A DNA stretch of 50,434 bases from an uncultured Candidatus Saccharibacteria bacterium (GCA_964572275.1 CAZNED010000003.1:1-50434), one strand, 5' to 3'; positions 12,688 through 19,272 are shown, counted from the stretch's first letter. Made by a program: numbers and translations. The notes: a model not told the origin generated them from the letters alone.

Positions 12688-12977
12688 GGGGACGCATGGC
12701 TTCGATAGAAGCTTGAATCAAGTGGTGCAGATTAAGGTGTCGAGTCCTTATTAAACTTTCGACAAAGTACAAGTGTCAACACACTTCGGGGTTTAACCCC
12801 CGCTTACGCTTACGCCTGATATTCTCAGAGTAAGCTTTCATAGTTTTTTGCCCCCATTCGTGGGGGAATCGTTTCAGAGGAACAACTGTTCCTTTTAGAC
12901 TCTTGCAAAAGGGCTAAGTCTGTAGAAGCTACTTGTATTCGTCCTTCTAGACGTGGGTTCGATTCCCACCGTCTCCA
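12688..12977 (+). ncRNA. ssrA: tmRNA (ssrA)
   Basis: The 5' end GGGGACGCATGGCTTCGA pairs with the 3' acceptor CGTCTCC followed by discriminator A. A canonical T-arm GTGGGTTCGATTCCCAC is present. An internal tag frame ends ...TPAYAYA-TGA (stop at 12817-12819). CCA is not encoded. Confidence 0.8.
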
Positions 12978-13030
12978 CTCTAATTAAAATTAACTTTCAC
13001 ATAATCGAACAATATTTTATCAACAATACT

Positions 13031-14110: not shown

Positions 14111-15148
14111 ATTTCTAAAAGAGTATTTTCCTATTTTCTTTAGGAGTTCTTTAATCTTGCCTTTTATTATTTGACCCGTGAACAAGAAGAAATAACCTAC
14201 ACCGAGAGCGCACATAAGTAAACGCATTCCTCGCCAGATTAGACTGAACCCTACGGCGGCACCTTGCCCCAATCCTAATCCACTAAAAGCAATTACCTGT
14301 AGTAGCTCTAGACTACCAAGGGTAGCCGGTAAAAGGAACATGATGCTTAATCCTGCAAACGCATGCACCGATAAAGCTGATAAGACAGAAGCATGACCTG
14401 TTAAGAAGAAGACCAGTAAGAATGCTTGCGCGCAAGAAATCAAATATTTGATAAGAGTAATGCCCAACAATCTTCTGGCTTTGCTATTTTTTAAGTTAAA
14501 GAAACTGGTAATTTTATTTTCCTCTTCTTCTAAGTCAAAGAATTTATTATTATAGGCAGCTTTCGATAGGCCAAATAATCTCAGTACTGGATTGATAACA
14601 CTCTTGCCTCGCGATACTCGAACAAAGAAATAGACCAGAGCTATACTTAATCCTATTGGAATTAGCGTGAAGAAGGAGATAAGTTCTATACTAGCAAACC
14701 CTGTTGCAAACATGAACAATAATAATCCTAAGAAGATAAAGGAGGCATGGATAATGAAATCAGCTAATTTTAGGACAATTAGAGAATGTATTCCTTTGTT
14801 CCAAGAAACATCTTTTTCTTTTTTTAGAAGATAAAGAGTTAAGGCTTCTCCGCCAATGAAAGCTACTGGGGTTAAAAAGCTGACCGTAAAACCAACAACT
14901 AATATCCGCCAAAGTCTTCGCCATGGCAAATGGCAACCCATTTGAGACAAAGTATCTTGCCAGGCTAAAGCCGCAAAACCTTCTATGATTAAAGTACACA
15001 AGAAAAGTAAGACAAATTGCCAAGGCCGAATCATGCTAAGTGCACTACCGACATCTCGCCACTCAACACGGCCACTGATAATTAAAAAGAAAACTATACC
15101 CAGCGTAAGGGTGGTTAGAAAAAATAAAACGCTCTTAAGTGATGGCAT
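14108..15148 (-). CDS. polytopic membrane protein, UPF0104 / lysyl-PG-synthase-TM (flippase-like) family
   Basis: 346 aa with about 8 predicted TM helices. The N-terminal pattern (RVEWRDVGSALSMIRPWQFVLLFLCTLI...ALAWQ) is typical of this family. Confidence 0.5.
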   Translation of the reverse strand: MPSLKSVLFFLTTLTLGIVFFLIISGRVEWRDVGSALSMIRPWQFVLLFLCTLIIEGFAALAWQDTLSQMGCHLPWRRLWRILVVGFTVSFLTPVAFIGGEALTLYLLKKEKDVSWNKGIHSLIVLKLADFIIHASFIFLGLLLFMFATGFASIELISFFTLIPIGLSIALVYFFVRVSRGKSVINPVLRLFGLSKAAYNNKFFDLEEEENKITSFFNLKNSKARRLLGITLIKYLISCAQAFLLVFFLTGHASVLSALSVHAFAGLSIMFLLPATLGSLELLQVIAFSGLGLGQGAAVGFSLIWRGMRLLMCALGVGYFFLFTGQIIKGKIKELLKKIGKYSFRN

Positions 15149-15159
15149 AATAATTCAAC

Positions 15160-15197
15160 AAAGAAAAAGCGCTAAGAAAACTTCTGTTTTCTAGCGC
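15160..15197 (-). terminator. rho-independent terminator after the 88-aa gene (minus strand)
   Basis: On the minus strand: GCGCTAGAAAAC, loop AGAA, GTTTTCTTAGCGC (12 bp with one bulge), followed by TTTTTCTTTGTT. Confidence 0.7.
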
Positions 15198-15208
15198 ATT
15201 TTCGTTAT

Positions 15209-15475
15209 TCAGATCTTATAAACGCGATATCCTGGTCTTACTTTCTGATCGACTTTCATGCCTATTTCTTGCCCTGCTTTCGCGCTATCGATTTTTTGAT
15301 GATCGACTTCCATGGAATCGACTTTCTGGATGAAATCAGTCTCACCGCCCACAAACCTAATTTCGTCGCCGACTTTTAAGGATTTGCTTAGTTCTATTAC
15401 GGCAACGCCAATCTGGTCAAAATAATGGATAATTTGACCGATTATTTTTTTATCATCTAAACCCTCTTGGGGCAT
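15209..15475 (-). CDS. small EF-Tu domain-2-like beta-barrel protein ('translation elongation factor-like protein')
   Basis: 88 aa. IGQIIHYFDQIGVAVIELSKSLKVGDEIRFVGGETDFIQKVDSMEVDHQKIDSAKAGQEIGMKV matches the family pattern as I recall it. Confidence 0.55.
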   Translation of the reverse strand: MPQEGLDDKKIIGQIIHYFDQIGVAVIELSKSLKVGDEIRFVGGETDFIQKVDSMEVDHQKIDSAKAGQEIGMKVDQKVRPGYRVYKI

Positions 15476-15668
15476 AATAAATATGGAAAGTTAATAAAGA
15501 TGACCTTTATTGGGTAAGGACTTGACCTCATATCTCCCTACCGATCCCCCCGAGATAAACTCGGATCGGTCATTCCGACCGAAGGCCAGGGATCCATCCG
15601 TCTATATCATACCAAAATGAGAACATATTTCCAGTGTTATTTATAAACAGCATCAGATTAAGCAATAG

Positions 15669-15740
15669 TACCCCCAAAAGGAATCGAACCTTCATCCCGG
15701 CCTCCGGAGGGCCGTGCTTTGTCCATTAAGCTATGGGGGC
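15669..15740 (-). tRNA. tRNA-Arg (anticodon CCG)
   Basis: The reverse complement GCCCCCATAGCTTAATGGACAAAGCACGGCCCTCCGGAGGCCGGGATGAAGGTTCGATTCCTTTTGGGGGTA folds as a 72-nt cloverleaf. It has a 7-bp acceptor stem (one G-U), D stem GCTT/AAGC, anticodon stem CGGCC/GGCCG with loop CTCCGGA, and a T arm GAAGG-TTCGATT-CCTTT. Confidence 0.85.
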
Positions 15741-16382
15741 GCGATAAGCAATAATAAAATAATTACAACGCTTGTTTTTCCTTAAAAATCCTTCTTCTAA
15801 AATCTTCAATCCTGATCTTATCACCAACTTTTTTAATTCATTTGGTGTAAAATAATGATAATAGAGCCAAGATCTTCCACCCCATTTCTTCAAGAAAGAC
15901 TGGCGATCCAAATGATATTTCTTTTTTATAAATGAAGGATAGGGTTGCCAAACAGTTATGATAATTTTACCATTAATACGCAGTGTTCTATAAGCTTCCT
16001 TAAGGGTTTCTAGAGTTGCTGAAGGTGATAAGTGGTGCAATAAAGCAATTGCCCAAATTGAATCAAAATAATTATCAGTATAAGGCAGATGCCGAGCATC
16101 TCCTATGCAAAAAGAAAATGAAGAATGATTCAATTTAGCAATCCGGATTAAGGCATCTGACTGATCAAGGCCATGATATTCTACCTTTAGATCATCGAAT
16201 AACTCCACTAACCTACCATGGCCACATCCCAGATCAAGAATTCTGTTGTTTGGTTCAATTAATCTTTTGAATTCCTGTAACTCCGGCCAAATAGTTTTGC
16301 GAGAAGATTGGAATAGATAACTTTCCTGGTTATAGCCTTGTCGATTCAATTCAATCAATTCATCATCTGTTAATCTCTTCAT
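15726..16382 (-). CDS. class I SAM-dependent methyltransferase, Trm9-like (tRNA mcm5U-type)
   Basis: SAM motif I is ILDLGCGHGRL. F.SSRKTIWPELQEF precedes it. AIALLHHLS and the C-terminal WLYYHYFTPNELKKLV...GF resemble yeast Trm9 (FSQTRYKPWP..., IDVGCGNGKY, ISIAVVHHWST, YRYYHLYREGEL) as I recall it. I take the ATG at 16382 as the start; the track uses a TTG at 16391. Confidence 0.65.
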   Translation of the reverse strand: MKRLTDDELIELNRQGYNQESYLFQSSRKTIWPELQEFKRLIEPNNRILDLGCGHGRLVELFDDLKVEYHGLDQSDALIRIAKLNHSSFSFCIGDARHLPYTDNYFDSIWAIALLHHLSPSATLETLKEAYRTLRINGKIIITVWQPYPSFIKKKYHLDRQSFLKKWGGRSWLYYHYFTPNELKKLVIRSGLKILEEGFLRKNKRCNYFIIAYRAPIA

Positions 16383-18002
16383 ATGGATCAAAATACTTTT
16401 AAAATATGCGAAAAAATAATTATTCGATTATCTCTTGAGCCGAATTTGAGTTATCCAATGCTAGATCGGATAAAAAGAGATGAGGCGAAAAACCATCTTT
16501 CAACGCCTCCCAAGAATTCTCAGATACTTTCAGTCTATCATGAGTTAATCAGAAAAAGAATTATTAAGCATCAAATTCGGTTAGCCCGCTTTTTGGTTAC
16601 TCGTCGCGTTAGATCTTTATCTGGCGTCACTGTTATCTCAGTTTTAACAAAACCTTATCCTTGTCCCGGACATTGTCTCTATTGCCCAGAACAAGAGAAT
16701 GTTCCCAAGAGCTACCTTCGCAATGAACCGGCTGTTATGCGAGCTATCGATAATAAGTATAGTCCGTATTGGCAGGTAATTAATCGAATTAAATCTTTGG
16801 AAGAAATTGGTCATCCTACTGATAAATTAGAACTGATTGTTATTGGTGGCACCTGGAGTTATCTGCCTAAAAGATACCAAAGAAGATTTATCTACCAATG
16901 CTTCCGGGCCGCTAATGGACGCAAGAGTTTAACTTTATCAAGTGCGCAAAAATTAAATACTCAAGCAAAACATCGCATTATTGGCATTACCCTAGAAACT
17001 CGCCCTGATTTCATAAATCCAGAGGAAATAAGGCGCATGCGCAGGCTAGGCGCTACTAAAGTAGAGTTGGGGATTCAGTGTTTGGATAATCGCATTTTGG
17101 CAATAAATCGACGAGGACACGATTTAACAGCCATTATCAAAGCAACTTCATTATTGAAAGATGCCGGATTTAAGGTGGGATATCATTTAATGGTAAATAT
17201 GCCTGGAGCAACTGTCGAACAAGAGAAAACTGCCTCTCGCAAATTATTTGATGATGAGAATTTTCGGCCAGATTTTCTCAAAATATATCCAACCGCCATT
17301 CTTCCTGAAGCTCCATTGTATCAATGGTGGCAAGAAGGAAAATATAGCCCTTATGAATATCGCGAACTTATTGATTTAATTAAATTTATTAAGAAAAATG
17401 TTCCCAGATATTGCCGGATACAGAGAGTTATCCGAGATATCCCTTCCGACAGTGTCGTTGTCGGTCCGGTCAAAACAACTAATCTTCGAGAAATCATTCT
17501 ACAAGAATTAAAGAGTGAAGGAACGCCTTGTCAATGTATCCGTTGCCGAGAAATTAAGGATCATCTCCATGAATTCAATCCTATTCTTTTCAGAGAAGAT
17601 TACCAATCTTCCGGAGGGAAAGAAATTTTCCTTACTTTCGAAGATGAAGGTAGGAAGAATCTATTAGCGCTATTAAGACTTAGAATTCCTTCTCATGTCA
17701 TTAACCATTCGGTTCATTTCTGGTCTATATTAAACAGATCAGCTTTAGTAAGAGAAATACACACTTACGGACAACATTTATCTCTCGGTGAGAAAACAAT
17801 TTCATCACCCCAGCATCAAGGTTTGGGGAAAAAGCTTCTAGAAAAAGCCGAGCAAATAGTTTCCCAAGAGTTTAATTCAGAAATAGATCAAATTGTCATT
17901 ATTGCTGGAGTCGGCACTAGAGAATATTATCGTCGATTTGGATATTCCCTAAAAGAAACATATATGATCAAGAAGCTTTCATCTCAGACCAAAGACGTCT
18001 GA
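16383..18002 (+). CDS. elp3: Elp3-type radical SAM + GNAT enzyme (tRNA U34 cm5-modification family)
   Basis: 539 aa. Radical-SAM cluster segment KPYPCPGHCLYCP. A TIM-barrel body (LELIVIGGTWSYLP, TLETRPD, VELGIQCLD). A C-terminal GNAT acetyl-CoA motif QHQGLGKKLLEKAE. Confidence 0.8.
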   Translation: MDQNTFKICEKIIIRLSLEPNLSYPMLDRIKRDEAKNHLSTPPKNSQILSVYHELIRKRIIKHQIRLARFLVTRRVRSLSGVTVISVLTKPYPCPGHCLYCPEQENVPKSYLRNEPAVMRAIDNKYSPYWQVINRIKSLEEIGHPTDKLELIVIGGTWSYLPKRYQRRFIYQCFRAANGRKSLTLSSAQKLNTQAKHRIIGITLETRPDFINPEEIRRMRRLGATKVELGIQCLDNRILAINRRGHDLTAIIKATSLLKDAGFKVGYHLMVNMPGATVEQEKTASRKLFDDENFRPDFLKIYPTAILPEAPLYQWWQEGKYSPYEYRELIDLIKFIKKNVPRYCRIQRVIRDIPSDSVVVGPVKTTNLREIILQELKSEGTPCQCIRCREIKDHLHEFNPILFREDYQSSGGKEIFLTFEDEGRKNLLALLRLRIPSHVINHSVHFWSILNRSALVREIHTYGQHLSLGEKTISSPQHQGLGKKLLEKAEQIVSQEFNSEIDQIVIIAGVGTREYYRRFGYSLKETYMIKKLSSQTKDV

Positions 18003-19272
18003 CAATCGCTCTGTCATCCCAAGGTATTTTTCGCCCACCCGATAAACACATAAGAGGTTCTGATCCTTTACCCGTAATAACTATTACATCGCCCGGACGA
18101 GCTATATGCATAGCTTTCTTGATGGCTTTTTCCCGGTCTAAAACGATTGAACATTTTCCTTTGAAATTATCGGAGACTCCCGCCCGAACTTGTTCGATTA
18201 TTGCCGCAGGATTTTCATCATACGGATCTTCATCTGTCAAAATGATAATATCTCCATATTCTTCTGCTATTTTCCCAAAAACCGGCCTCTTCCAATGATC
18301 ACGACCGCCTCCGCAAGCTCCTAGAATCAAAATCATTCTCCCTTTTAACCCGATCTTTACGGTTTCATAAACGAACTTTAAGGCCTTGGGAGTATGTGCG
18401 TAATCAACTATTACCGAAAAGGGGCTATCCATAACTATTTCCATGCGTCCTGGCATAATCTTAACTGATTTTAGTGCTTGACTGGATTTCTCGCGCGAAA
18501 TGCCCTGAGACCATGTTGCCGCTACAGCAGCTAAACCGTTAAGAACATTAAATTCTCCCAATAACGGCCAAGAAACTTCATGATTATCAAAAGTAAATTT
18601 TGATCCAAACGGAGATAATGTTATCTTGTCGAGATAAATCCCTTCTTTCGTTTTATCCCTATTCTTTTGGCCGAAACCAATTTTCCTATCTGCAATAAAA
18701 CTTAAGAAATGATCGGCATATTTGTCATCTATATTTGCAATTATAACCTTATCTTTTTTAATGCTCTTAGATAGTCCTGAAAAAAGTTTGCTTTTAGCCT
18801 GCAAATATTTTTCAAAACTACCGTGTCTTTCAATATGTTCTGGAGAAAGATTGGTGAAAACCAAAGCATCGAAGTCAATAAAGCGATGACGATGCTGACT
18901 AATACCTTCGGATGTTACCTCTAATACGGCATATTGGCATTTAGCTTTGACTGCTTGCGCCAGAAAACGCTGCATAGCCCAGCGTCCAGGCATGGTCATT
19001 TTCAAATTATTGAATTCGATATCATCGTTAAGGCGGAATTGAATTGATGATGAAGAAGCTGTTTTATGTCCTGTTGTACGAAAGATATGCGCAATCAATT
19101 CAACTACTGTTGATTTCCCGCTCGTTCCCGTAACTCCGATGACTTTTAACCGACGAGAGGGAAAACGATAAAAACAAGCACCAGATAAAGCCAATGAAAA
19201 ATGGTAAATGCCGATTAAAAATTTTGGAGTAATCCGACGAACTATATTTTTTATGAACCTTAATATTTTCAT
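17968..19272 (-). CDS. murE: Mur ligase, MurE-like (UDP-MurNAc-tripeptide synthetase)
   Basis: 434 aa. P-loop VIGVTGTSGKST, then LEVTSEGISQHR, FTNLSPEHIERHG, DYAHTPKAL, LGACGGGRD and ITGKGSEP. The amino-acid specificity cannot be read from the sequence. Confidence 0.75.
   Translation of the reverse strand: MKILRFIKNIVRRITPKFLIGIYHFSLALSGACFYRFPSRRLKVIGVTGTSGKSTVVELIAHIFRTTGHKTASSSSIQFRLNDDIEFNNLKMTMPGRWAMQRFLAQAVKAKCQYAVLEVTSEGISQHRHRFIDFDALVFTNLSPEHIERHGSFEKYLQAKSKLFSGLSKSIKKDKVIIANIDDKYADHFLSFIADRKIGFGQKNRDKTKEGIYLDKITLSPFGSKFTFDNHEVSWPLLGEFNVLNGLAAVAATWSQGISREKSSQALKSVKIMPGRMEIVMDSPFSVIVDYAHTPKALKFVYETVKIGLKGRMILILGACGGGRDHWKRPVFGKIAEEYGDIIILTDEDPYDENPAAIIEQVRAGVSDNFKGKCSIVLDREKAIKKAMHIARPGDVIVITGKGSEPLMCLSGGRKIPWDDRAIVRRLWSEMKAS

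Follow-up and report, generated by a model that had tools for sequence, protein, structure and literature searches.

We analyzed a stretch of 50,434 nt (hereafter the window) from the very small genome (471 kb, 92% complete) of a member of the CPR/Patescibacteria, in which a gene for Elp3 lies divergently beside a gene for a Trm9-like methyltransferase. We consider it probable (roughly 70%) that these two genes form a U34 modification module that replaces MnmE/MnmG and leads from cm5U to mcm5U, with mcm5s2U on some tRNAs. Elp3, using its [4Fe-4S] cluster, SAM and acetyl-CoA, would carboxymethylate U34 at C5 in certain tRNAs, yielding cm5U, and would do so alone, without Elp1, Elp2, Elp4-6 and Kti12, as in archaea and Dehalococcoides. 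The divergently encoded Trm9-like enzyme would then move a methyl group from SAM to the carboxylate of cm5U, producing mcm5U without Trm112, and MnmA would 2-thiolate tRNA-Lys(UUU), tRNA-Glu(UUC) and tRNA-Gln(UUG) to mcm5s2U. We infer which substrates the module uses, in which order its steps run and what product results; it would stand in for the MnmE/MnmG pathway missing from this genome and from nearly the whole phylum. A preliminary description of the locus had proposed a two-gene module of the mcm5U type, and our results support it: none of the observations that it had named as speaking against the proposal (a methyltransferase grouping with UbiE or other Methyltransf_11 families, the presence of MnmE/MnmG, Elp3 cluster ligands lacking) was made.

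The first ORF of the pair (16383-18002, plus strand, 539 aa, with radical-SAM and GNAT/KAT domains) is, judged from its sequence, a complete Elp3 with every checked cofactor ligand present. It scored 536.6 bits on TIGR01211 (cut-off 350), with residues 27-532 aligned, and matched the PDB entries 5l7j (DmcElp3, E = 2e-122, 46% identity) and 6ia8 (MinElp3, E = 1e-119). Both Elp3 motifs quoted in the preliminary description, KPYPCPGHCLYCP and QHQGLGKKLLEKAE, are present, and so are all the cluster ligands. The radical-SAM [4Fe-4S] motif CPGHCLYC (16662-16685, plus strand; C94, C98 and C101) aligned with CPGKCIYC of DmcElp3, a Zn-binding CQCIRC (C383, C385 and C388) was found at 17529-17546 (plus strand) and the acetyl-CoA motif QHQGLG of the KAT domain lies at residue 477 (17811-17828, plus strand). 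The three-Cys Zn motif is conserved in bacterial and archaeal Elp3 (PMC6367351), and the pocket residues K148, K264, E458 and Y515 are conserved with K77, K193, E386 and Y441 of DmcElp3 (PMC6367351). Residues 1-75 (16383-16607, plus strand) form a basic N-terminal extension of the archaeal/eukaryotic type, with 16 K/R vs 7 D/E, to which a 2019 paper ascribes importance in substrate recognition (PMC6367351). Formation of cm5U34 by the window Elp3 is predicted. The last 35 nt of the gene lie inside a convergent Mur-ligase gene (17968-19272, minus strand).

The second ORF (15726-16382, minus strand, 218 aa from its ATG) encodes a class I SAM-dependent methyltransferase which, according to sequence, profile and fold comparisons, belongs to the Trm9-like family. 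An alternative TTG start at 16391 would give a protein of 221 aa (15726-16391, minus strand), and the ATG is favored both by a database gene call (P0001) and by N-terminal conservation among the homologues. The lengths of both ORFs and their divergent adjacency were as the preliminary description had claimed, as were the methyltransferase motifs FQSSRKTIWPELQEF, ILDLGCGHG, AIALLHHLS and WLYYHYFTPNEL, and the Trm9 strings that it had given for comparison match the fungal consensus (HFSxTRYKPWP, LDVGCGNGKY, ISIAVIHHLST and RYYHLYRxGEL). Its claim of a resemblance to Trm9 beyond the generic SAM fold was also borne out, the similarity being well above what chance would give. The top phmmer match in the PDB was Trm9 from Yarrowia (5cm2_Z, E = 1.5e-15, residues 30-215), the identity between YlTrm9 and the window protein being approximately 28%, and hmmsearch with the family profile ranked Trm9 first among PDB sequences (93.7 bits). 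Aligned with 15 fungal Trm9 sequences by hhalign, the family profile reached a probability of 100 (E = 7.7e-41, 201 columns) and ran end to end, from column 11 to 230 (of 233) on one side and from 17 to 230 (of 234) on the other. An AF2 model of the protein (pLDDT 91.8) also retrieved 5cm2_Z first with Foldseek (E = 3.1e-17), but 3sm3 and METTL6 followed within an order of magnitude and many class I methyltransferases were near, and we therefore dropped the fold search as a means of discriminating Trm9.

Those close Foldseek E-values, together with Pfam and NCBIfam matches that were only generic and the UbiE label that some databases attach to the homologues, could point to a general SAM methyltransferase with no tie to Elp3 other than its position, either UbiE-like or acting on a small molecule. 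Such an enzyme is very improbable here. No named family, UbiE or other Methyltransf_11, rose above its cut-off (UbiE/MenG models 35-38 bits vs 158-216, DVU_1556 51.7 vs 155, BioC 42.5 vs 185), Trm9 was the best match by sequence, profile and fold, and a 471-kb genome is unlikely to hold quinone or small-molecule pathways needing such an enzyme. A PADLOC match to mad2 (52.9 bits) was dismissed, as it spans the generic methyltransferase core only. Phylogeny was dropped as proof of Trm9 orthology: an 89-row quick tree left the deep node joining Trm9 to the bacterial family unsettled, and a reduced tree (9 long rows left out), whose best topology separated Trm9, archaeal proteins and the Elp3-linked proteins from bacteria from 14 generic proteins, supported that node weakly (SH-aLRT 41). 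Archaeal proteins grouped with fungal Trm9 in the tree, and the bacterial proteins formed separate, well-supported clades.

The functional residues separate the Elp3-adjacent proteins from generic methyltransferases. We used a ten-residue Trm9 signature (Y18, R29, D72, H115, H116, W145, W168, R241, Y243 and N271; PMC4678810), within which R29, D72, H116, W145, W168, R241, Y243 and N271 are needed for the activity of ScTrm9 according to mutagenesis (PMC4678810). Scores were bimodal, with 8-10 in 44/44 Elp3-adjacent proteins vs 2-5 in 23 generic methyltransferases, which again argues against an unrelated enzyme; fungal Trm9 scored 10/10 and the window protein 9/10, keeping Y20, R31, D76, H119, H120, W148, W170, Y178 and N210 (221-aa numbering). 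In the 218-aa numbering, SAM-binding motif I (ILDLGCGHG) comprises residues 48-56 (16215-16241, minus strand), in columns invariant in the alignment, and the SAM-ribose aspartate D73, at GLD, corresponds to ScTrm9 D72. The His-His pair H116/H117 (16032-16037, minus strand) corresponds to ScTrm9 H115/H116, positions occupied by His in 43/44 and 42/44 Elp3-adjacent proteins, respectively. Trm9 H116 has been proposed to position the cm5U carboxylate, which the R29/H116 pair would hold, and N271 has been proposed to read the uracil (PMC4678810).

The exception is R241. The segment LYYH (residues 173-176 of the 218-aa form; 15855-15866, minus strand) aligns with R241-Y242-Y243-H244 of Trm9 and places a leucine (L176 in the 221-aa numbering) where 43 of the 44 Elp3-adjacent proteins have Arg, the window protein being the sole exception; across its 11-member clade the residue is Leu or Ile. 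This counts against our main reading, since replacing R241 by alanine leaves yeast Trm9 with approximately 1% of its specific activity (PMC4678810), and it raises the possibility that the methyltransferase, although coupled to Elp3, catalyzes another reaction, on a different Elp3-derived side chain or anticodon-loop atom, or with a specificity altered or weakened in this clade. Two new basic residues, R100 and K169 (R97 and K166 in the 218-aa numbering), are clade-specific and invariant or nearly so, suggesting a remodeled pocket, and the branch of the window protein is long (1.4-1.5 vs a median of about 0.6). Moreover, cm5U was not detected in Haloferax, where an unidentified isobaric species was seen (PMC6144793), which leaves room for other side-chain chemistry in archaea and bacteria. 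We nevertheless find a different reaction rather unlikely, because the other nine functional residues, including the R29/H116 pair and N271, are kept in 11/11 clade members and R241 itself is kept outside the clade. The same R97 and K166 may instead compensate for the lost arginine. With these residues, the methyltransferase is best read as a predicted tRNA (carboxymethyluridine34-5-O)-methyltransferase working without Trm112.

To place the pair in its wider context, we used a phylum sample of 401 genomes. Elp3 exceeded its cut-off in 148 of them and MnmG in 11, none of which had Elp3, so that Elp3 is approximately 13 times commoner than MnmG; the earlier statement that Elp3 is only sporadic in bacteria does not apply to this phylum. 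A Trm9-like gene was located within 1.5 kb of Elp3 in 90 of the 148 Elp3-positive genomes (median gap 122 bp), and the orientation was divergent in all 90. The family profile, for its part, had 116 strong matches, of which 113 fell in Elp3-positive genomes. The co-occurrence and synteny that the preliminary description had suggested checking are thus strong, and the support for a dependence of the methyltransferase on Elp3 is this genomic association. Against the main reading, 38/148 Elp3-positive genomes had no strong Trm9-like gene, so Elp3 can work without a Trm9-like enzyme. Among named genomes, Elp3 was adjacent for 42/55 full-length matches vs 2/25 core-only matches. All-against-all ORF clustering of 20 loci from 17 families revealed no third module gene: only Elp3 and the methyltransferase occurred in more than four loci, and the other neighbors differed, a pattern hard to reconcile with a methyltransferase lying beside Elp3 by chance. 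Dehalococcoides Elp3 likewise has a divergent Trm9-like neighbor 43 bp away with a signature of 10/10, and the pair is widespread in Patescibacteria and Chloroflexota, Dehalococcoides included. The preliminary description had known of no account of a linked bacterial pair. The pair is not confined to this genome, and for an archaeon, Sulfolobus solfataricus, a cluster of Elp3 and Trm9 genes was reported earlier (PMC6144793). The two genes are also adjacent in a Crenarchaeota MAG; the archaeal genes that we found are co-strand, not divergent.

Another alternative is a recent archaeal transfer, decaying or unexpressed, so that no modification would be made. The loss of the R241 equivalent would fit such decay, as would the result that neither type of SAM synthetase was found in this 92% complete genome, which also weighs against our main reading. 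Such a decaying pair has, in our view, little chance of being the explanation, because both ORFs are intact, all Elp3 ligands are present and strongly reduced genomes of 0.5-1 Mb have retained the pair throughout the order, the class and many families of the phylum, and because the bacterial methyltransferases are not nested in the archaeal clades.

The remainder of the genome was searched for other enzymes acting on wobble uridines. Neither MnmE (best match 28.6 bits, cut-off 252.6) nor MnmG (16.3 bits, cut-off 524.85) was found in the 92% complete genome, and searches for Kti12, CmoB and TilS/Ncs6-type enzymes also found none of them there. A bacterial-type MnmA is present (360 bits, cut-off 237), which makes the pathway a hybrid, as is an ADP-forming acetyl-CoA synthetase. 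Trm112 (PF03966) had no match in the genome, a further point against the main reading; across the phylum, PF03966 exceeded its cut-off in 15/401 genomes, mostly inside ORFs of more than 300 aa, and a control search recovered Trm112 in seven named genomes. The methyltransferase would therefore have to act unaided by Trm112, on which Trm9 of yeast and Haloferax depends; the preliminary description had named Trm112 as the partner of Trm9 in eukaryotes. An 88-aa ORF (15209-15475, minus strand) with weak matches to Peptidase_U32_C and EF-Tu domain 2 was rejected as a Trm112 substitute, having homologues in the two closest relatives only, of 20 loci. The genome has approximately 46 tRNAs, and in the split boxes every tRNA with U34 is matched by one with C34, in the archaeal/eukaryotic manner. 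Taken together, the missing MnmE, MnmG, Trm112, Kti12, CmoB and TilS-type enzymes and the presence of MnmA lead to a prediction of mcm5U34, with mcm5s2U34 on the Lys, Glu and Gln tRNAs.

The layout of the locus is compact. The methyltransferase ATG (16382-16380, minus strand) abuts the Elp3 ATG (16383-16385, plus strand), forming a CATATG junction at 16380-16385 without any intergenic nucleotide, and each promoter should therefore lie inside the coding sequence of the partner gene. Four relatives of the same order were compared: L005 and L006 also have CATATG, L003 and L004 have CATG with a 2-nt overlap, and in each of the five loci the Elp3 ATG is preceded at 6-9 nt by a TAAT[CT]T element. 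A promoter and terminator scan of 15100-18200 found promoter-like sites to be rarer than in shuffled sequence and therefore gives no guidance. Missing SD sites were dropped as an argument for leaderless mRNAs: an SD-like 4-mer precedes only 10% of the ORFs of the genome vs 15% in an internal control, and since the genome barely uses SD sites, their absence at the Elp3 and methyltransferase starts says nothing. At its 3′ end, the methyltransferase gene overlaps by 15 nt, on the same strand, a tRNA-Arg(CCG) gene (15668-15740, minus strand; ARAGORN; Rfam RF00005, 64.9 bits), so that the last four methyltransferase codons (A-P-I-A) and the stop codon are read from the initial 15 nt of the tRNA gene, which cover the acceptor stem and the beginning of the D-arm. 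The APIA tail is common to 11/11 clade methyltransferases in the alignment, and tRNA-Arg(CCG) lies directly downstream of the methyltransferase in three of the four relatives (L003, L004 and L005). Because of its C34, this tRNA is not an expected Elp3 substrate. The preliminary description had missed both the abutting ATG codons and the tRNA overlap.

A broader reading joins these elements, and we give it about even odds: the Patescibacteria/CPR superphylum and many Chloroflexota would have swapped MnmEG for a hybrid of Elp3, a Trm112-independent Trm9 relative and MnmA, yielding mcm5U/mcm5s2U; in the order of the window, the genes would have no intergenic DNA and promoters inside the partner coding sequence, mRNAs may be leaderless, and the substrate-binding Arg would apparently have moved to R100 or K169. 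Reviews of tRNA modification treat mcm5U, mcm5s2U and Trm9 as archaeal/eukaryotic and assign bacterial wobble uridines to MnmEG. With the usual bacterial enzymes missing, this organism probably uses the route that those reviews call absent from bacteria, and Elp3 is mostly accompanied by a Trm9 relative without Trm112 in this lineage, which is among the largest in bacteria. According to one review, bacteria have no detectable gene similar to the Trm112-dependent methyltransferases (PMC5372719). If nucleoside analysis confirms the module, the range of organisms known to carry an important anticodon modification would change. The family would then also supply structural and mechanistic studies with a Trm9 that is by nature independent of Trm112, explain the biological role of the crystallized Dehalococcoides Elp3 and serve as an indicator of how accurate decoding is maintained by ultra-small symbionts with so few tRNAs.

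Compared with known systems, MnmE/MnmG (with MnmC) and MnmA act on the same tRNAs and position, and the MnmA step is shared with the window genome, whereas the C5 chemistry of MnmE/MnmG uses folate, FAD and glycine and that of Elp3 radical-SAM and acetyl-CoA. Methyl esterification of a wobble-uridine carboxylate by a SAM-dependent bacterial enzyme has a precedent in CmoM (SmtA) of E. coli, which converts cmo5U to mcmo5U. However, no CmoM structure was among the top PDB sequence matches, and the window family has its link with Elp3 rather than with CmoA/CmoB. DmcElp3 of Dehalococcoides mccartyi (PDB 5L7J, 6IA6), a characterized bacterial Elp3, has the same ligands as the window Elp3 but lacks its basic N-terminal extension; in a literature search that did not reach the 2016 structure paper, no mention of its methyltransferase neighbor was found. 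Haloferax and Sulfolobus are prokaryotic systems like that of the window, with a stand-alone Elp3 and, in their case, a Trm9 orthologue, and HvoTrm9-Trm112 makes mcm5U in an archaeon, as shown by LC-MS (PMC6144793), but the archaeal enzyme is Trm112-dependent, Haloferax volcanii Trm9 requiring Trm112 for solubility and activity (PMC6144793), as does yeast Trm9. Fungal Trm9-Trm112 (S. cerevisiae; Y. lipolytica, 5CM2) and, in animals, the methyltransferase domain of ALKBH8 with TRMT112 are the eukaryotic counterparts, class I SAM enzymes whose alignment with the window protein spans its full length. It differs from Trm9 in its 218 aa without insertions, the Leu at R241, the absence of a detectable Trm112 from its genome and the hydrophobic residues V59 and F78, which Trm112 buries and which are charged (R and E) in the window protein. 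The two nevertheless share the N-terminal helix with Y18, R29, the HH pair, W145, W168, Y243 and N271, both are genetically tied to Elp3, and the same reaction, cm5U34 to mcm5U34, is predicted for the window enzyme.

As the preliminary description had it, the window carries a 539-aa Elp3 ORF (16383-18002, + strand) beside a divergent SAM methyltransferase ORF (15726-16382, - strand; 218 aa when read from the ATG, 221 aa from a TTG further upstream), and every motif quoted for the two was found there. The Elp3 ORF scored 536.6 bits against NCBIfam TIGR01211 (cut-off 350) and matched the Elp3 structures of Dehalococcoides (E = 2e-122) and Methanocaldococcus (E = 1e-119). The functional residues named in PMC6367351 were mapped onto it and all were found, with the radical-SAM triad (C94, C98, C101), the acetyl-CoA pocket residues (K148, K264, E458, Y515) and the three Zn cysteines (C383, C385, C388) intact and a QHQGLG motif. 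The 75 residues at its N-terminus are basic (16 K/R versus 7 D/E) and correspond to an extension that archaeal and eukaryotic Elp3 have and the crystallised Dehalococcoides mccartyi enzyme (DmcElp3) lacks. There is hardly any doubt that this ORF encodes a true Elp3.

The methyltransferase had been likened to yeast Trm9 beyond the generic SAM fold. In Pfam and NCBIfam it gave generic matches only, with no Trm9-specific match and scores far under the cut-off of every named equivalog. Its top PDB match by phmmer was nevertheless the Trm9 chain of the Yarrowia Trm9-Trm112 complex (5cm2_Z, E = 1.5e-15), in an alignment spanning residues 30-215 that includes the C-terminal YYH segment, outside the Rossmann core. 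A profile of 40 homologues (A1) likewise ranked Trm9 first in the PDB, at 93.7 bits over its full length, followed by 1ve3 at 85.8 bits over the core only, and profile-profile comparison with 15 named fungal Trm9 sequences gave a probability of 100 (E = 7.7e-41) across 201 columns, end to end. A fold search of the PDB with the AlphaFold model, which was confident (pLDDT 91.8), ranked 5cm2_Z first (E = 3.1e-17, target TM-score 0.79, 28% identity), with further class I methyltransferases close behind, so the fold alone is not decisive for Trm9 identity.

The residues separated the groups cleanly. Ten positions of Saccharomyces cerevisiae Trm9 (ScTrm9) serve activity or the cm5U pocket (Y18, R29, D72, H115, H116, W145, W168, R241, Y243 and N271; PMC4678810), of which the window methyltransferase keeps nine. 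When this signature was scored across 89 proteins, the 44 Elp3-adjacent proteins reached 8 to 10 and the ten fungal Trm9 all ten, versus 2 to 5 for 23 generic methyltransferases recruited through the common GCG motif; no protein scored 6. Twelve further proteins whose retrieved locus showed no Elp3 scored 7 to 10; they belong to the same lineages of Patescibacteria, Chloroflexota and archaea.

Phylogeny was weaker evidence. In a quick tree of the 89 rows, the Elp3-linked bacterial methyltransferases formed one clade, with a Patescibacteria subclade that includes the window protein (SH-aLRT 95) and a Chloroflexota-type subclade (99), while fungal Trm9 and archaeal proteins grouped together (88), the node joining them to the bacterial groups being left open. 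Once nine long-branch rows were removed, both bacterial groups fell on one side of the reduced tree with Trm9 and the archaeal proteins, and all 14 generic proteins on the other, at an SH-aLRT of only 41. The grouping of Trm9 with the bacterial Elp3-linked proteins is thus recovered and not rejected by the tree, which does not demonstrate it. Sequence, profile, fold rank and residue signature all bear out the Trm9 assignment over the generic one, and we put at roughly 0.9 the probability that the methyltransferase belongs to the Trm9 family and is linked in function to Elp3.

The preliminary description had proposed a two-gene module from this single locus, and co-occurrence and synteny agreed with it. 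In a sample of 401 genomes from the phylum, we searched separately for Elp3 and with the A1 profile, the latter built without regard to gene context, and cross-tabulated the results. Elp3 was above cut-off in 148 genomes, and 113 of the 116 A1 matches of at least 100 bits fell in these; one of the other three adjoins an Elp3 fragment cut by a contig end. The pair lay within 1.5 kb in 90 Elp3-positive genomes (median gap 122 bp), and all adjacent pairs were divergent. Only Elp3 and the methyltransferase were common to more than four of 20 loci from 17 families, indicating that they were kept together through many rearrangements. Among named public genomes, Elp3 adjoined 42 of 55 full-length matches versus 2 of 25 core-only matches. 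Numerous lineages of Patescibacteria have the pair, and it is also present in Chloroflexota (Anaerolineales, Caldilineaceae and others), Ca. Fermentibacteria, Ca. Multivorans and one Crenarchaeota MAG. Dehalococcoides CP019867.1 encodes an Elp3 98% identical to DmcElp3 and, 43 bp upstream, a divergent 224-aa methyltransferase with all ten signature residues.

Two further observations came from this survey. Throughout one family (f35, e.g., G017, G045, G070, G174, G191 and G237), Elp3 is present but no Trm9-like match reaches 100 bits, and in several of its genomes ORFs of about 314 aa contain a weak match to the Trm112 domain; this family may use a different step downstream of Elp3. The methyltransferases of five MAG loci labelled 'uncultured Gammaproteobacteria' (L041, L047, L048, L059 and L079), three of them with Elp3 adjacent, fall inside the Patescibacteria clade, and the labels probably reflect errors of binning or default taxonomy.

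The window is contig C3 of a genome that comprises 470,812 bp in 15 contigs and is an estimated 92% complete; relatives of this genome carry the label Patescibacteria. The preliminary description had pointed to mnmE, mnmG and trm112 as the genes to look for, and within this assembly MnmE reached at best 28.6 bits (cut-off 252.6), MnmG at best 16.3 bits (cut-off 524.85) and Trm112 had no match. The same assembly gave zero matches to CmoB, to Kti12 and to PP-loop enzymes of the TilS/Ncs6/TtuA type (PF01171). It does encode a bacterial MnmA (360 bits, cut-off 237). Across the phylum sample, MnmG was found in 11 of 401 genomes, none of which had Elp3, and Trm112-domain matches above cut-off in 15, nearly all inside ORFs longer than 300 aa. 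Some 242 of the 401 genomes had neither MnmG nor an above-cut-off Elp3.

The 46 tRNAs of the genome include U34 species for Lys, Glu, Gln, Arg(UCU), Leu(UAA) and Gly, each with a C34 partner, the same pattern as in archaea and eukaryotes. The set looks archaeal or eukaryotic in other respects too: there is a tRNA-Ile(UAU), with two CAT tRNAs only and no TilS-type enzyme, so that AUA is apparently read without lysidine. A tRNA-Arg(GCG) is present and no ACG tRNA was found among the 46; the four-codon boxes have G34, C34 and U34 tRNAs and none with A34. As regards cofactors, the genome encodes a two-subunit ADP-forming acetyl-CoA synthetase, and neither AckA nor Pta was present in the assembled 92%. 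Although SAM-dependent enzymes are encoded, neither a bacterial (MetK) nor an archaeal SAM synthetase was found in the same assembly, meaning either that SAM is imported, perhaps from a host, or that the synthetase is encoded in sequence missing from the assembly.

From family membership, residue conservation, gene linkage and precedent in yeast and Haloferax, we propose a pathway in which Elp3 alone would carboxymethylate U34 at C5, the Trm9-like enzyme would methylate the resulting carboxylate using SAM, and MnmA would thiolate C2 on the Lys, Glu and Gln tRNAs, giving mcm5U and mcm5s2U. In the precedent, Trm9-Trm112 acts on cm5U-bearing tRNA and mcm5U is lost upon trm9 deletion (PMC6144793). 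That the product in the window's organism is mcm5U or mcm5s2U seems likely. Two hydrophobic residues of Yarrowia lipolytica Trm9 that are buried by Trm112 are charged in the window protein (V59 to R, F78 to E); in most CPR members the two sites are occupied by K/R and D/E. Such charges would fit a solvent-exposed surface, but they count only as supporting evidence since the two archaeal sequences also differ there.

The missing signature residue is the equivalent of ScTrm9 R241, which is Leu in the window protein (L176, 221-aa numbering), the sole non-Arg among the 44 Elp3-adjacent proteins; Leu or Ile occupies the position in the window's 11-member clade. This clade alone has gained two basic residues, R100 (Arg in 11/11 members versus Leu in 23/29 others) and K169 (Lys in 10/11 versus mostly Pro, Ser or Asp). 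Judged from the alignment, R100 and K169 look like a relocated substrate-binding residue replacing R241.

The gene layout showed two features absent from the preliminary description. First, the ATGs of Elp3 and the methyltransferase abut with zero intergenic DNA, forming a CATATG junction (16380-16385). Throughout the five genomes of the order (that of the window and four relatives), the divergent start codons either abut or overlap by 2 nt (CATG), and conserved N-terminus lengths support these start assignments. All five also carry a TAAT[CT]T element 6-9 nt 5' of the Elp3 ATG; it is kept while the methyltransferase residues that it overlaps vary, suggesting a constraint on the DNA itself, e.g., as a -10 box. 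It may be the -10 box of a leaderless or near-leaderless mRNA. Second, a tRNA-Arg(CCG) gene (15668-15740, - strand) overlaps the methyltransferase CDS at 15726-15740. Four of the five genomes have this tRNA gene downstream of the methyltransferase, and in the window's subclade the CDS enters it by 15 nt, with the last four codons and stop of the CDS. The C-terminal APIA shared by 11/11 clade homologues is explained by this overlap with the tRNA acceptor stem and D-arm. If the two were co-transcribed, RNase P processing would strip the stop codon and leave a non-stop mRNA.

Around the pair, the 3' end of Elp3 overlaps that of a convergent Mur-ligase gene (17968-19272, - strand) by 35 nt (17968-18002), another sign of extreme genome compaction. 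An 88-aa ORF (15209-15475, - strand), conserved in the two closest relatives only, has weak matches to Peptidase_U32_C (29.4 bits) and an EF-Tu domain 2-like family (24.6 bits). A tmRNA gene (12688-12980, + strand; tag peptide VNTLRGLTPAYAYA) stands immediately 5' of infC-rpmI-rplT; the longest infC ORF (GTG at 12953) overlaps its 3' end, and infC translation therefore probably begins at a later codon.

DmcElp3 has been described as a rare example of a bacterial Elp3 (PMC6367351), and other literature places Elp3 in numerous bacteria; the Elp3 literature examined nowhere names a bacterial enzyme acting after it. According to a review of Trm112, bacteria have no detectable genes that resemble the methyltransferases dependent on Trm112 in eukaryotes, and their U34 is modified by MnmEG and MnmC (PMC5372719). 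Full-text searches, with the 2016 DmcElp3 paper outside their scope, returned nothing linking Elp3 to the candidate phyla radiation. They also returned nothing joining Patescibacteria, tRNA modification and wobble, no mention of Patescibacteria in the Elp3 and Trm9 literature found, and zero occurrences of the phrase 'bacterial Trm9'. The enzymes and their chemistry are already known from eukaryotes and archaea, and clustered Elp3 and Trm9 genes have been noted in Sulfolobus (PMC6144793). The pathway proposed here would follow the same two-step logic as eukaryotic and archaeal Elp3 and Trm9, but in a bacterium, without Trm112 and combined with MnmA; in the window's order, the gene layout is also unusual and an active-site residue is altered.
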